Below are positions 34,142 through 43,283 of a stretch of DNA of 64,000 nt, one piece after another. Position numbers and translations under genes: made by a program. The stretch lies in sequence record ON210139.1. The stretch is one strand, 5' to 3'. The stretch is from Escherichia phage EC128. The notes below the pieces were generated by a model. That model made no database searches, was not told where the DNA came from, and worked only from the letters and a program-made list of their open reading frames with translations. How positions within the stretch are numbered: the first letter of the stretch is position 1; the number at the start of each line of letters is the position of its first letter.

Positions 34142-34838
<697 letters not shown>

Positions 34839-34850
34839 TTTCACAAAGTT

Positions 34851-34890
34851 GTTTACATACTGATGAGGTAGTGATACTATTATCTCATCA
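34851..34890 (+). promoter_or_regulatory. Early promoter with stem-loop (PeSL-like) upstream of ipI
   Basis: -35 GTTTACA, -10 TGATACTAT embedded in the inverted repeat TGATGAGg...tCTCATCA. Confidence 0.6.
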
Positions 34891-34910
34891 AAATTAATTA
34901 GGAAAATAAA

Positions 34911-35198
34911 ATGAAAACTTTCAAAGAATTTACTTCTACAACTACCCCGGTTTCTACTATTACTGAAGCTACTCTTACTTCTGAAGTTATTAAAGCAAAT
35001 AAAGGACGAGAAGGTAAACCAATGATTAGTTTAGTTGATAGCGAAGAAATCAAAGGTACTGTTTACCTAGGTGATGGGTGGTCTGCTAAAAAGGATGGTG
35101 CTACAATCGTTATCTCTCCTGCTGAAGAAACTGCGTTGTTTAAAGCTAAACACATTTCTGCGGCACATCTCAAGATTATTGCTAAAAATCTTTTGTAA
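34911..35198 (+). CDS. ipI: Internal protein I (capsid-targeted)
   Basis: 95 aa ORF; N-terminal capsid-targeting leader ending ITE|A (gp21 protease site); body matches recalled T4 IPI. Confidence 0.85.
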   Translation: MKTFKEFTSTTTPVSTITEATLTSEVIKANKGREGKPMISLVDSEEIKGTVYLGDGWSAKKDGATIVISPAEETALFKAKHISAAHLKIIAKNLL

Positions 35199-35216
35199 TA
35201 AATATTTCACAAAGTT

Positions 35217-35255
35217 GTTTACATAGGGTTTTAGTAGTGATACTATTACCCTATC
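35217..35255 (+). promoter_or_regulatory. Early promoter with stem-loop (PeSL-like)
   Basis: -35 GTTTACA, -10 TGATACTAT inside the inverted repeat ATAGGGT...ACCCTAT; near-duplicate of the module at 34841-34890. Confidence 0.6.
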
Positions 35256-35274
35256 AACTACTGAGGAGAATAAA

Positions 35275-35844: not shown

Positions 35845-36132
35845 ATGATTCTTTATGCGAAAGTATCATCCATTGAAAATGGATATAAATATGATCAAGA
35901 AGCAGCTAAAGCCTTGATTGATGATTATGGCATTTTAACATATTTTGAAGTTGAAAAGGTTTACATTGACCGTTCATCTTCTCAAGTTAAATTAGTAAAG
36001 GAAGACCGTAAATTTAATACAGTAAATTTTGATTTCTTTATTGAAACAGAAAAAGGTCCTCTTGAATATGATATTTTCAAGAATCCTTTGGGTCTTGAAT
36101 GCATCGTAAATATGTATTATCATAAATGGTAA
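35845..36132 (+). CDS. Hypothetical protein
   Basis: Track ORF starts at a TTG (35839); the first ATG at 35845 has a GAAGG RBS. Confidence 0.45.
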   Translation: MILYAKVSSIENGYKYDQEAAKALIDDYGILTYFEVEKVYIDRSSSQVKLVKEDRKFNTVNFDFFIETEKGPLEYDIFKNPLGLECIVNMYYHKW

Positions 36133-36229
36133 ATATGCTTTAAGAATTATTTGTTATTATTAACTCATATCGCACTGATTAATACCCTCTATCATCAAGG
36201 GTTCTTGCTTAAGAGCCTTTGTTAATAAT

Positions 36230-36302
36230 TGGGAATTAGCCAAGTTGGTAAGGCACTGGATTTTGATTCCAGGATGCAAAGGTTCGAGTCCTTTATTCCC
36301 AG
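36230..36302 (+). tRNA. tRNA-Gln (anticodon UUG)
   Basis: Cloverleaf with acceptor TGGGAAT/ATTCCCA, anticodon loop TTTTGAT, T-arm GGTTCGAGTCC. Confidence 0.85.
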
Positions 36303-36303
36303 C

Positions 36304-36390
36304 GCGAGAATGGTCAAATTGGTAAAGGCACAGCACTTAAAATGCTGCGGAATGATTTCCTTGTGGGTTCGAGTCCCACTTCTCGCACCA
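36304..36390 (+). tRNA. tRNA-Leu (anticodon UAA), type II with long variable arm, CCA encoded
   Basis: Acceptor GCGAGAA/TTCTCGC, anticodon loop CTTAAAA, long variable arm, T-arm GGTTCGAGTCC. Confidence 0.85.
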
Positions 36391-36395
36391 AATTT

Positions 36396-36469
<74 letters not shown>

Positions 36470-36479
36470 ATTTAATTTA

Positions 36480-36553
36480 CTCCGTGTAGCTCAGTTTGGT
36501 AGAGCGTCTGCTTTGGGAGCAGAATGTCGTAGGTTCAAATCCTGCCACGGAGA
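36480..36553 (+). tRNA. tRNA-Pro (anticodon UGG)
   Basis: Acceptor CTCCGTG/CACGGAG, D-arm TAGCTCAGTTTGGTAGAGC, anticodon loop TTTGGGA. Confidence 0.85.
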
Positions 36554-36555
36554 CT

Positions 36556-36642
36556 GGAGGCGTGGCAGAGTGGTTTAATGCACCGGTCTTGAAAACCGGC
36601 AGTCGCTCCGGCGACTCATAGGTTCAAATCCTATCGCCTCCG
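36556..36642 (+). tRNA. tRNA-Ser (anticodon UGA), type II
   Basis: Acceptor GGAGGCG/CGCCTCC, anticodon loop CTTGAAA, long variable arm. Confidence 0.85.
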
Positions 36643-36644
36643 TT

Positions 36645-36720
36645 GCTGATTTAGCTCAGTAGGTAGAGCAACTCACTTGTAATGAGAAGGTCGGCGGTTC
36701 GATTCCGTCAATCAGCACCA
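36645..36720 (+). tRNA. tRNA-Thr (anticodon UGU), CCA encoded
   Basis: Acceptor GCTGATT/AATCAGC, anticodon loop CTTGTAA, T-arm GGTTCGATTCC. Confidence 0.85.
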
Positions 36721-36721
36721 A

Positions 36722-36793
36722 GGCCCTGTAGCTGGAAGGTTCAAGCAAGCGACTCATAATCGCCAGATGGTGGTTCAATTCCACCCAGGGCCA
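36722..36793 (+). tRNA. tRNA-Ile (anticodon CAU, presumably lysidine-modified as in T4)
   Basis: Acceptor GGCCCTG/CAGGGCC, anticodon loop CTCATAA; T4 encodes a CAU-anticodon tRNA-Ile (established knowledge). Confidence 0.75.
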
Positions 36794-36834
36794 TATTTTG
36801 GGAACATAAATACTCTTAGAAATAGGAGATATTT

Positions 36835-37500
36835 ATGTTCCATTACACTTATAAAATAACAAATAAAATTAATAATAAAATTTATATTGGTGTGCATTCT
36901 ACCGAAAATTTAGATGATGGATATATGGGTTCTGGTAAATTATTAAAAAGAGCCCAAGATAAATATGGTATAGAAAATTTTTCTAAAGAAATATTAGAGT
37001 ATTTTGATGATAAAGAATCTATGCTTGAAGCCGAGAAAAATATTGTCACAGAAGAGTTTTTAAATAGACCAGATGTGTATAATTTAAAACTTGGCGGTGA
37101 AGGTGGATGGGACCATATAAATATTCCTGGGATGCTAAACCAGAAGAAAGACGCTAGTTTAAAAGGAGCTAAATCGTTTAAGTCACGTTTTAAAAATGAT
37201 ATTTTACTTCAAGAAAAATATCGTAAACATGGTTCAAATGTATTTAAACGCTTGTGGTCAACTCCTGAATACAGGGAAAAATTTTTAAATAATAGCAGAT
37301 TTTTAAATAAGCATCATACTCCTGAAACTATTAATAAAATGAAAGAATCTCACGCCAGAAATAAACACCAACAGGGCGAAAAGAATTCCCAATTTGGTAT
37401 GATGTGGATTCATTCATTAGATGAAAAAGTTTCTAAACGTATTAAGAAAACTGACCCAATTCCAGAAGGATGGTTTAAAGGTCGAAAAATGAAATTTTAA
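36835..37500 (+). CDS. segB: GIY-YIG homing endonuclease SegB inside the tRNA cluster
   Basis: 221 aa ORF with GIY-YIG motif YTYKITNKINNKIYIGVHS; located between the tRNA subclusters as in T4. Confidence 0.85.
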   Translation: MFHYTYKITNKINNKIYIGVHSTENLDDGYMGSGKLLKRAQDKYGIENFSKEILEYFDDKESMLEAEKNIVTEEFLNRPDVYNLKLGGEGGWDHINIPGMLNQKKDASLKGAKSFKSRFKNDILLQEKYRKHGSNVFKRLWSTPEYREKFLNNSRFLNKHHTPETINKMKESHARNKHQQGEKNSQFGMMWIHSLDEKVSKRIKKTDPIPEGWFKGRKMKF

Positions 37501-37503
37501 TTA

Positions 37504-37580
<77 letters not shown>

Positions 37581-37894
37581 AACAAGAAGCCGGGTCGCTA
37601 CCGGTAAGTCGTCGGACTGATGTTCCCTGAGTAAGGAATTGCGTTAATAATCTTTGCGTTTATTGATGCCCTCTTACATCACAGCAGAAACGGCGCACCG
37701 AATTATCGATTCGAGGAAATATCTTTGCCGTAAGCCGAGTAGCGTTTTTGACGGAACGTTCGGATATGGTCGAGATATGGCCTTTTAAAAATATTGAGTA
37801 GCGTCAACTACTTAATAACCGGGTTCAAGTCCCGGCGTTTCGTACAAACACTTGCCTTAGCAGGTGGAACCCCGACAAGGTTGCCGCAAGGCTT
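37581..37894 (+). ncRNA. Stable small RNA region (candidate equivalents of T4 RNA species C and D)
   Basis: About 310 nt without ORFs downstream of tRNA-Arg, containing a tRNA-like T-arm (CCGGGTTCAAGTCCCGG) and hairpins; T4 carries two stable RNAs here; boundaries not determined. Confidence 0.4.
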
Positions 37895-37922
37895 AGCCCC
37901 GACCGAAAGGTTGGGGCTTTTT
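37895..37922 (+). terminator. Rho-independent terminator after the tRNA / stable RNA cluster
   Basis: AGCCCCGACC-gaaa-GGTTGGGGCT hairpin followed by a T run. Confidence 0.75.
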
Positions 37923-37924
37923 AG

Positions 37925-37932
37925 TATAAATA
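37925..37932 (+). promoter_or_regulatory. Late promoter (TATAAATA)
   Basis: TATAAATA 37 nt upstream of the ATG at 37969. Confidence 0.55.
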
Positions 37933-37968
37933 AGTATATTAAAACCACGATTTAAAACAGGAAATAAG

Positions 37969-38262
37969 ATGAAATCATATGCTCAATTTTTAAATGAAGC
38001 GGTGTTAAATGAAGCATCTAGCACCGAAATTCAAGCTGTCGCAAAAGCAGCCATTGCCGCGGGTAAATATTCCTATAAAGATGCTTCCGATGAATCGCGA
38101 TTCCAGTTCGCACGCGACATGAAAGCGGAAGGATTTACGGGAAATGCAGTTAGTATGGCCTGGAAAAGTTTAGTTGCTACTGGAGCTGCTTTTGCAAAGG
38201 CTTCAGGTAAACCTGCTCCTAAAGCAGATCCTAAAGCTGCACAAGAAAAAAAATATTGTTAA
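37969..38262 (+). CDS. Internal-protein-like gene with capsid-targeting leader; frame appears broken at an A8 run, with the continuation open to 38443
   Basis: N-terminus MKSYAQFLNEAVLNEA resembles the T4 internal-protein capsid-targeting sequence with L-x-E sites; A8 tract at 38248-38255 separates it from an overlapping frame (track ORF 38174-38443). Confidence 0.55.
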   Translation: MKSYAQFLNEAVLNEASSTEIQAVAKAAIAAGKYSYKDASDESRFQFARDMKAEGFTGNAVSMAWKSLVATGAAFAKASGKPAPKADPKAAQEKKYC

Positions 38263-38450
38263 AGGAATTATCTCCAAATATGAAGCTATCCTTAAAGAGC
38301 TTTTAGTAATCAAAACTGAAGGCCAAAAGCTAGCTCGTGCTTATAGTTTCAAAGATAATCCGCATGCTCATGACCTAGAGTATGTTGAAGACATCCAAAA
38401 AATTATTAAAGACCGCATTTGGTCTGCTAAACAAATCAAATAACATTCTT

Positions 38451-38477
38451 AGCCCCGACCAAAAGGTTGGGGCTTTT
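38451..38477 (+). terminator. Rho-independent terminator, near-identical copy of the one at 37895
   Basis: AGCCCCGACC-aaaa-GGTTGGGGCTTTT; direct repeat of the hairpin at 37895-37922. Confidence 0.7.
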
Positions 38478-38610
38478 GGTATCTAGGCCTTTCTGGGCCT
38501 CTCTAGGCATTATTTAGTTTCTACCCTTTATAATATATTATCCTATCTTTTAATTGCCCCTCCTGACCCTAGAATTCCCTAAAACTTTTTAAAAATTTTT
38601 TCACAAAACT

Positions 38611-38645
38611 GTTTACATCCCTGTTCTTCCATGGTACTATACAAC
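38611..38645 (+). promoter_or_regulatory. Early promoter (PeSL-like module with conserved leader)
   Basis: -35 GTTTACA, -10 TGGTACTAT, followed by the leader GGTACTATACAACTATCAACTAC also present at 53388 and 55527. Confidence 0.6.
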
Positions 38646-38683
38646 TATCAACTACTGATACAGAAAACAACTTGGAGAACGAA

Positions 38684-38947
38684 ATGGATAATTACGGCGA
38701 ACTGTTCAACTTCTTTATGAAATGTGTTTCAGAAGATTTCGGTCGTACAGTGAATGATATTAAAGTTATCGGTCCTGATCATCCGATGTTTGAAACTTAT
38801 GCGGTAATGGGCAATGAAGACGGTCAGTGGTATACTGTAAAGGTTGTGATTAACATGTTCACTGCTGAAAGTTATGTTAAACTGTCTTCTAAAGTTTACC
38901 ATGATAACGACGAAATCGCAGAAGAATATTTCAATAATATGAAATAA
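38684..38947 (+). CDS. Hypothetical protein
   Basis: ORF with GGAG RBS before ATG 38684 (track start 38672). Confidence 0.5.
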   Translation: MDNYGELFNFFMKCVSEDFGRTVNDIKVIGPDHPMFETYAVMGNEDGQWYTVKVVINMFTAESYVKLSSKVYHDNDEIAEEYFNNMK

Positions 38948-38985
38948 GTTTACATAGGCTCATGATTGAGATATTATGAGCCTAT
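38948..38985 (+). promoter_or_regulatory. Early promoter inside a stem-loop (PeSL-like)
   Basis: -35 GTTTACA and -10 TATTAT enclosed by the 9-bp inverted repeat TAGGCTCAT...ATGAGCCTA. Confidence 0.6.
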
Positions 38986-39003
38986 ACAAATGAGGAAAAC
39001 ATT

Positions 39004-42276: not shown

Positions 42277-42807
<531 letters not shown>

Positions 42808-42811
42808 AGTT

Positions 42812-42843
42812 GTTTACTTTCTCCTAGAATTGTGATAGTATAT
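42812..42843 (+). promoter_or_regulatory. Early promoter for denV
   Basis: -35 GTTTAC, -10 TAGTAT with upstream TG, in the 59-nt gap between e and denV. Confidence 0.55.
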
Positions 42844-42866
42844 TCACAGTTACTTGGAGGGATAAA

Positions 42867-43283
42867 ATGACTCGTATTAATTTGACTTTAGTATCTGAAC
42901 TTGCTGATCAACATTTAATCGCAGAATACCGTGAATTGCCGCGTGTTTTTGGTATAGTTCGTAAGCATGTGGCAAACGGTAAGCGCGTTAAAGATTTTAA
43001 AATATCTTCTAAATTTATTTTAGGTTCTGGTCATGTTACTTTCTTTTACGATAAGTTAGAATTTTTGCGAAAGCGTCAATCGGACATTATAACGGAATGC
43101 TTAAAACGCGGGTTCAGTATAAAAGATACTGAAGTTCCTGACATCAGCGATATTCCAGTAGAATGGAAAAATGATTATAATCCATGCAAATCAGCTATTA
43201 AGTTGAGTCAACAACGACTCGATGAAAAAATTTTAATGAAGCCACACTGGTATAAGTATTACGGCAAAAATATTTACATTTAA
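42867..43283 (+). CDS. denV: Endonuclease V (pyrimidine dimer DNA glycosylase)
   Basis: 138 aa [20 protein letters not shown]...; recognised as T4 endonuclease V. Confidence 0.95.

Follow-up and report, generated by a model that had tools for sequence, protein, structure and literature searches.

The internal proteins of T-even phages enter the host cell together with the phage DNA. At the T-even internal-protein (IP) loci, Repoila et al. reportedly found in 1994 that the capsid-targeting leader is conserved while gene number and identity vary, and regulatory blocks on both sides are said to mediate the shuffling. The proteins form a diverse set with the capsid-targeting sequence as the only common part (PMC3012670), and in T4 their genes are found at two loci, ipI and ipIII-ipII (PMC12373910). 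All three T4 internal proteins (Ip1-3) are reported to be specific inhibitors of GmrSD-type/type IV restriction systems (PMC12373910). Since the injected proteins block specific type IV systems, the set of IP genes likely influences which hosts can be infected. A comparable organization was described by Arbiol et al. (2010) for the phages RB49 and phi1, where promoter/stem-loop (PeSL) repeats flank single ORFs, a single element is present at the empty site, and mini-circles are detectable (PMC2839356). The same authors pointed out that Repoila et al. (1994) saw analogous elements, based on a T4 early promoter, at two variable IP loci (PMC2839356), and Comeau et al. (2014) extended the PeSL finding to a T-even pair (PMC4122927). 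The mechanism class is already known, as it was proposed for both the T-even IP loci and the PeSL elements (PMC2839356, PMC4122927).

Here, we analyzed a site between rnaC and e.8 in a stretch of 64,000 nt from Escherichia phage EC128 (ON210139.1; hereafter the window), where two copies of a terminator-like hairpin enclose a late promoter and a single gene, termed ipX. A 1.1-kb query across the site matched 770 phage records with 80–98% identity, nearly all of them Tequatrovirus, and the window phage is itself a T4-like Tequatrovirus. All features described in the following are located on the plus strand. Upstream of hairpin copy 1 (37892..37923), eight tRNA genes stand in T4 order, broken by a GIY-YIG gene matching segB. 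The conserved left flank consists of rnaD and rnaC, two small stable RNAs closing the tRNA cluster (37581..37844; rnaD approximately 37581-37699, rnaC approximately 37706-37844). Their coordinates are those annotated in T4T (L003: rnaD 1492-1610, rnaC 1617-1755), shifted by a constant offset of 36089. Copy 1 is followed by the late promoter TATAAATA (37925..37932), located 2-3 nt past the T-run and 37 nt before the ATG, by ipX (37969..38443) and by hairpin copy 2 (38448..38478). Next comes a spacer (38479..38683) with an early-type promoter of family D1-D3 (TTTACA at 38612, TACTAT ending at 38640), which serves e.8. This spacer is collinear with the T4T sequence directly past the single hairpin of T4T, and the right flank begins there. 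The e.8 homologue (38684..38947; phrog_2678, E = 6e-56; annotated as e.8 in T4T) forms the conserved part of this flank. Based on the collinearity of the locus with T4 and on the record matches, copy 1 is the hairpin ending the tRNA/stable-RNA cluster, and copy 2 is the one that follows the inserted gene. The segB-type homing endonuclease gene is located at 36835-37500 inside the tRNA cluster, approximately 400 bp upstream of copy 1; relatives without this gene (TB37, G4498, Ozark) have tRNA-Tyr, tRNA-Asn and sometimes tRNA-His instead.

The EC128 site resembles the PeSL loci in having terminator-like stem-loop repeats around a single non-essential ORF with its own expression signals, and in having a relative with one element at the empty site; the proposal for both is that the ORF is excised, inserted or swapped when the repeats recombine. 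For the EC128 site, the close relatives with a single element at the empty site are T4T and T6. However, PeSL elements contain a sigma-70-like early promoter, whereas the EC128 hairpin is joined to the late consensus TATAAATA, and the nearest early-type promoter lies approximately 135 nt past copy 2 and thereby outside the repeat. Furthermore, the PeSL element is a composite of about 100 bp in RB49 and phi1, for which mini-circles were shown, while the EC128 repeat consists of 30-36 nt of terminator and belongs to the T-even phages proper. With the T-even IP loci, the site shares leader-bearing genes, a variable content and conserved flanking regulatory blocks. Unlike the two IP loci of T4, however, the rnaC–e.8 site is empty in T4, and the classical IP loci are flanked by early-promoter/stem-loop units, whereas the rnaC–e.8 cassette is flanked by a terminator and carries a late promoter.

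Similarly, the T4 deletions reported by Srikant et al. 2022 (PMC9391042) represent a loss of accessory genes at short direct repeats with one copy left behind. Those events occurred in the laboratory at chance microhomologies of 6-10 bp, whereas the EC128 site involves a functional element of 30-36 nt and natural alleles. Lambdoid morons also consist of one gene with its own promoter and terminator between backbone genes. They are not thought to be mobile via their own regulatory sequences or flanking repeats (PMC2839356), while in the EC128 cassette a copy of the terminator stands at each of the two joints. Compared to these systems, the rnaC–e.8 site and its module of terminator and late promoter appear new; the site may have an earlier description in the T-even literature.

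The window also contains IP loci of the classical type. The ipI homologue (34911-35198) is located between two 54-nt early-promoter/stem-loop modules (34838-34891 and 35204-35257), which are 83% identical and 366 bp apart. Each module has an inverted repeat between its -35 and -10 elements, a PeSL-like arrangement as at the classical IP loci, and related promoter modules recur at 38598, 42799, 49618, 53367 and 55506. The interval between e (42313-42807) and denV (42867-43283) contains no IP gene at 42808-42866 and a single promoter module, whereas the e–denV interval of T4 harbors ipIII and ipII, both preceded by an early-promoter/stem-loop module of their own. With the ipIII-ipII locus empty and the rnaC–e.8 site occupied, the IP occupancy of EC128 is the reverse of that in T4.

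The sequence-only reading that preceded this analysis had reported near-identical 28-nt hairpins about 560 bp apart, bracketing one late promoter and one leader-bearing gene. Both 28-nt sequences are present in the window, copy 1 at 37895-37922 and copy 2 at 38451-38478 (for a length of 28 nt, the end lies one base past the 38477 given before), and they differ at two positions, in the hairpin loop (GAAA versus AAAA) and in the last base (T versus G). With a leftward CTT, the direct repeat reaches 30 nt (37892-37921 and 38448-38477), of which 29 are identical, and the spacing measured start-to-start is 556 bp, in agreement with the earlier estimate. Between the copies we found exactly one match to TATAAATA and one gene with the leader MKSYAQFLNEA, starting at 37969; this part of the reading also stood, except that the gene is frameshifted in the window. 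The repeat is longer in most genomes, where it reaches 36 nt, CTTAGCCCCGACC(G/A)AAAGGTTGGGGCTTTTTGGTAT, and in most relatives it continues into GGTAT/AAATA, with the late promoter overlapping the repeat end.

Allowing up to three mismatches, the repeat was matched exactly twice on both strands of the 64 kb and never in 100 dinucleotide-preserving shuffles; no chance copies are expected in a sequence of this length. Among all direct repeats of at least 24 nt in the window, the terminator repeat has the highest identity. The homopolymer oddities of the window (A8 versus A7, T4 versus T5) could be sequencing errors, and would in that case lend something to the view that the repeat arose by chance or as an artefact of the assembly. 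We consider the probability of this explanation to be negligible, as the shuffles leave no room for chance matches and the two-copy arrangement recurs in independently sequenced genomes, with ipX being present in 402 phage records, always at one place per record.

Both copies fold as a stem of 10 bp capped by a 4-nt loop. In copy 1, the stem-loop (AGCCCCGACC GAAA GGTTGGGGCT, 37895-37918) is followed by TTTTT; in copy 2 (38451-38474, loop AAAA) it is followed by TTTT, where relatives have TTTTT. The folding energies are -20.3 kcal/mol for copy 1 and -19.5 kcal/mol for copy 2 (z = -3.6 and -3.9), and none of the shuffles folded as stably. Seven of the ten base pairs are G-C pairs (GCCCC/GGGGC). 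A terminator scan called both copies, and some depositors annotated a predicted terminator at copy 2. The two hairpins lie on the coding strand, copy 1 approximately 50 nt past rnaC and copy 2 8 nt past the ipX stop codon. They combine the sequence characteristics of intrinsic terminators, namely a GC-rich stem-loop, a U-run directly 3' of it and a sense-strand position where a unit ends. From this, we infer an intrinsic-type terminator in copy 1, which would close the tRNA/rnaD/rnaC transcription unit; copy 2 presumably terminates the ipX unit.

Among nine distinct natural variants of the hairpin, 93% of the stem cells stay paired. For the most part, the variants have U in place of C opposite G, or exchange G and A opposite U, and the resulting G-U or A-U pairs preserve pairing in the coding-strand RNA; one two-sided change was found in WG01. 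A covariation test on the nine variants favours pairing, but 55 of 500 shuffles did equally well and the statistical support is weak. An Rfam scan of positions 36000-39000 returned only the eight tRNAs and sub-threshold noise, and no family for the hairpin, rnaC or rnaD. Just 5' of copy 1, the stretch 37866-37892 (GGTGGAACCCCGACAAGGTTGCCGC) has CCCCGAC and AAGGTTG in common with the hairpin and itself folds into a weaker stem-loop. All alleles, including T4, have this conserved stretch, which could be a decayed older copy of the hairpin or a part of the rnaC precursor.

Comparison with related genomes showed the presence/absence polymorphism that had been anticipated, with a single terminator at the empty site. 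T4T and T6 have one hairpin. Upstream of it is the sequence that precedes window copy 1, the adjoining 30 nt being identical, and downstream is the sequence that follows window copy 2. When the window and T4T were aligned globally, one clean gap of 555 nt resulted, which is one repeat unit because window copy 2 is one T short. As judged from these alignments, the cassette unit is a presence/absence polymorphism, and its ends are exactly the two putative terminator copies. The allele of the EC128 window, hairpin-ipX-hairpin, is shared by G10400, TB37 and Ozark. In ESh24 and G4498, an ipY-only allele consists of the hairpin, a second gene termed ipY and then a different hairpin, T2 (CCCTATC-TAAAT-GATAGGG followed by a T-run), while CrRp10 and two IMG/VR contigs have both genes in the order hairpin-ipX-hairpin-ipY-T2. 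T4_ev151, which we considered as a laboratory deletion ending at the hairpin, was rejected as such and simply carries the ipY allele.

In a six-way alignment of the locus, all edges of large gaps lie within or at a hairpin. On its right side, ipY is joined at GGGCTTTTTGG, the sole stretch common to T2 and the first hairpin. As the right end of ipY is a different hairpin, not all joints represent long homologous repeats. The joints at hairpins across the alleles support the earlier proposal that the cassette was inserted, or may be excised, by recombination between the repeats. A lack of empty-site alleles, named beforehand as the result that would speak against it, was not encountered: about 80 of 585 records covered at least 80% of a 100-nt T4 query across the empty junction, among them T4, T6, RB3, ACG-C40 and BF15, at least one of these 80 matches being joined from two pieces. 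The ipY gene was found in 165 phage records, including Mosigvirus RB69 and phiC120. In an evenly spaced sample (60 of the 770 records), roughly 24 had ipX, 10 ipX and ipY, 6 the empty site and 3 ipY, the remainder being other genera or partial.

An exact-pattern scan of IMG/VR yielded only five loci, too few for population counts, one of which (L010) is an unrelated short contig. In the last 80 bases of this 5239-bp contig, on the reverse strand, two tandem hairpins resemble the terminator (AACCCCAACCGAAAGGTTGGGGTT and AGCCCCGACCGAAAGGTTGGGGCT), with a long T-run behind each; the contig itself is apparently unrelated.

The best reading of these data, to which we assign a probability of roughly 0.7, is a single-gene cassette that is gained and lost by homologous recombination at duplicated terminators. 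According to this reading, the hairpin would close the tRNA/rnaD/rnaC unit, and the 556-bp unit directly behind it would comprise the late promoter, ipX and the second terminator copy. The terminator repeat of 30-36 nt would serve as the crossover site for ordinary phage homologous recombination, in the form of unequal crossing-over or direct-repeat deletion, within one genome or between co-infecting genomes. Removal of the cassette would lead to the T4/T6 state with one hairpin, its addition or stacking would lead to the ipX-hairpin-ipY state, and different left flanks would become combined with the cassettes. The crossovers would probably lie within the repeat itself; once alleles exist, crossovers anywhere in the conserved flanks could maintain their distribution. 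With its own late promoter and terminator, the cassette would be correctly expressed wherever it landed, without read-through into the early gene e.8. In laboratory evolution, T4 deletes 0.7-6 kb, including ipIII, at microhomologies of 6-10 bp (PMC9391042), and a repeat of 30-36 nt is therefore more than sufficient.

Another explanation would be that the hairpin is a dedicated, structure-specific recombination site, similar to the PeSL mini-circles or to integron attC, from which the cassette excises as a circle and at which it re-integrates. The PeSL-flanked ORFs of RB49 and phi1 indeed give mini-circles, with crossovers in or beside the stem-loop (PMC2839356), and the geometry of the cassette is the one expected for the integration of a circle by a single crossover. 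Mosig 1998 is quoted as placing half of a set of T4 deletions at GGGC/GCCC motifs and suggesting a targeted pathway; the stem of our hairpin is GCCCC/GGGGC and the right joint of ipY is at GGGC. General homologous recombination is, however, sufficient for the data, and the neighbours of the site are tRNA genes, segB and e.x genes, with no evident recombinase candidate beside it, which makes a dedicated site very improbable in our view.

We also compared the sequences flanking the hairpins. In the left flank (300 nt), T4T with its empty site is 1.0-2.0% distant from three ipX sequences (the window, TB37 and G10400) and from CrRp10 (ipX and ipY), and G4498 (ipY) is 1% distant from a contig with ipX and ipY and approximately 10% from the others. 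On the right, the two empty alleles are mutually closest, the alleles with ipX and ipY are nearer to each other than to most others, and the grouping follows the allele more than in the left flank. Taken together, the left- and right-flank distances of these 14 loci, a small sample, indicate that left-flank haplotypes are re-assorted relative to the cassette content, as would be expected for crossovers placed near copy 1. An identity jump at the hairpin between RB69 and CrRp10 (82% on the left, 94% on the right) was considered as a sign of a recent inter-genus transfer and dropped: in a check with T4T, G10400 and the window, the rnaD/rnaC flank was approximately 93% and the e.8 flank 89-91% identical, and the low left figure is due to a divergent ORF further left.

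Outside the Tequatrovirus, the rnaC–e.8 site of Dhakavirus WG01 has a variant of the hairpin, AGGCCCTTCC-GAAA-GGTTGGGC, twice, past rnaC and before e.8. Between these hairpins of WG01 (L016, 2800-4060) are an ipX-like gene with its own, different terminator and then a gene for a predicted membrane protein of 184 aa (phrog_2143), which has no capsid-targeting leader. With this membrane-protein gene between the hairpins, the site takes non-IP cargo too. The presence of a lineage-specific hairpin on both sides points to a repeated duplication or conversion of the terminator and not to one ancient scar. In related genera the rnaC–e.8 site is occupied, which suggests that the empty state of T4 and T6 may have arisen by deletion. 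The comparison locates the joints, and the sequence by itself is compatible with insertion as well as with deletion.

These flank and WG01 data also bear on the view that the duplicated terminator is a functional necessity and a passive scar of one ancient event, with the polymorphism spreading by crossovers in the flanks, possibly with SegB co-conversion. Across hundreds of genomes, the left (rnaC) and right (spacer and e.8) flanks share 90-99% identity, which is ample for allele replacement, and the two hairpin copies differ from each other differently in each genome (Ozark, L011, phiC120), which argues against constant homogenisation. In the window, segB lies 400 bp upstream, and SegB causes the tRNA region to be inherited preferentially when infections are mixed (PMC2330249); homing-associated co-conversion by segB could carry the neighbouring cassette allele along. 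Even then, the origin of each allele would still require a joint exactly at the hairpin. The four allele types are interrelated through joints at hairpins, the WG01 cassette is flanked on both sides by a hairpin variant of its own, and T4 readily recombines at far shorter homologies. We therefore regard a passive scar as unlikely and favour recombination at the duplicated terminators.

Looking at the cassette genes, ipX encodes a protein of 157 aa, which is intact in G10400, CrRp10, TB37 and Ozark and carries the leader MKSYAQFLNE/A. The 187-aa product of ipY has the leader MKTYAEFLTE/A, and its late promoter is AATAAATA; for both genes, the late promoter upstream is a consensus match only. 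Both leaders end in L-x-E followed by A, as do those of T4 IPII and IPIII (MKTYQEFIAE/A), and L/I-x-E followed by A is the form of site cut by the T4 prohead protease in head maturation. The combination of leader and late promoter justifies the label "internal-protein-like", and ipX would accordingly be a candidate for a protein that is packaged in the head and injected. Both proteins match phrog_2280, a family of unknown function (intact ipX homologue, E = 2e-60; first half of the window ipX, 4e-37; ipY, 1e-53), and are therefore distant paralogues. T4 IPI, IPII and IPIII match the separate families phrog_4363, 7857 and 5341, respectively, and the family matching gave no homology of ipX or ipY to these proteins past the leader. 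For the ipX-like proteins of phiC120 and WG01, a weak match of the first ~40 residues to the IPII family was obtained (E = 8e-3 and 7e-4). A Pfam search of ipX and ipY gave no match.

Since the principle has been published, the value of the site lies in a well-resolved example and in a source of candidate anti-defence genes, and not in a new mechanism. Its natural alleles, with neither gene, either gene alone or both, are clean and show how such genes can be gained, lost and stacked at a repeated terminator. Being empty in the reference phage T4, the rnaC–e.8 site was probably overlooked, and ipX and ipY, with their 402 and 165 records, are unstudied candidates for injected anti-defence proteins. 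On a speculative note, the terminator of the tRNA operon might be a preferred, perhaps structure-directed, docking site and thereby a third IP platform, missed because of its empty state in T4, with cassettes excising as circles and re-integrating at the hairpin, and with ipX and ipY as injected inhibitors of defences such as GmrSD-type restriction. We consider this extended scenario as a whole improbable.

In the window, the ipX reading frame is split, frame 1 covering 37969-38262 and another frame continuing to the stop at 38443. The cause is a run of A8 at approximately 38248-38255; the corresponding stretch is A7 in G10400 and CrRp10 and AGAAAAA in TB37. In all 40 evenly sampled records (of the 402 with ipX), this stretch is at least one base shorter than in the window, and the frameshift is therefore either private to the EC128 sequence or an error; it could represent a private pseudogene, a slippage-prone run or a homopolymer sequencing error. 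Programmed frameshifting or transcriptional slippage at A8 was considered and set aside, a private mutation or sequencing error being likelier given the in-frame sampled relatives and a nearby homopolymer difference. Other homopolymer differences in the window are the T-run of copy 2, which is one T short (38475-38478), and a further one at approximately 39354. A second frame-disrupted cassette gene at the rnaC–e.8 site is the ipY of RB69 (L012, 2084-2646); the reference record divides it into two overlapping ORFs (ORF149c and ORF148c), whereas other genomes have one ORF of 187 aa.
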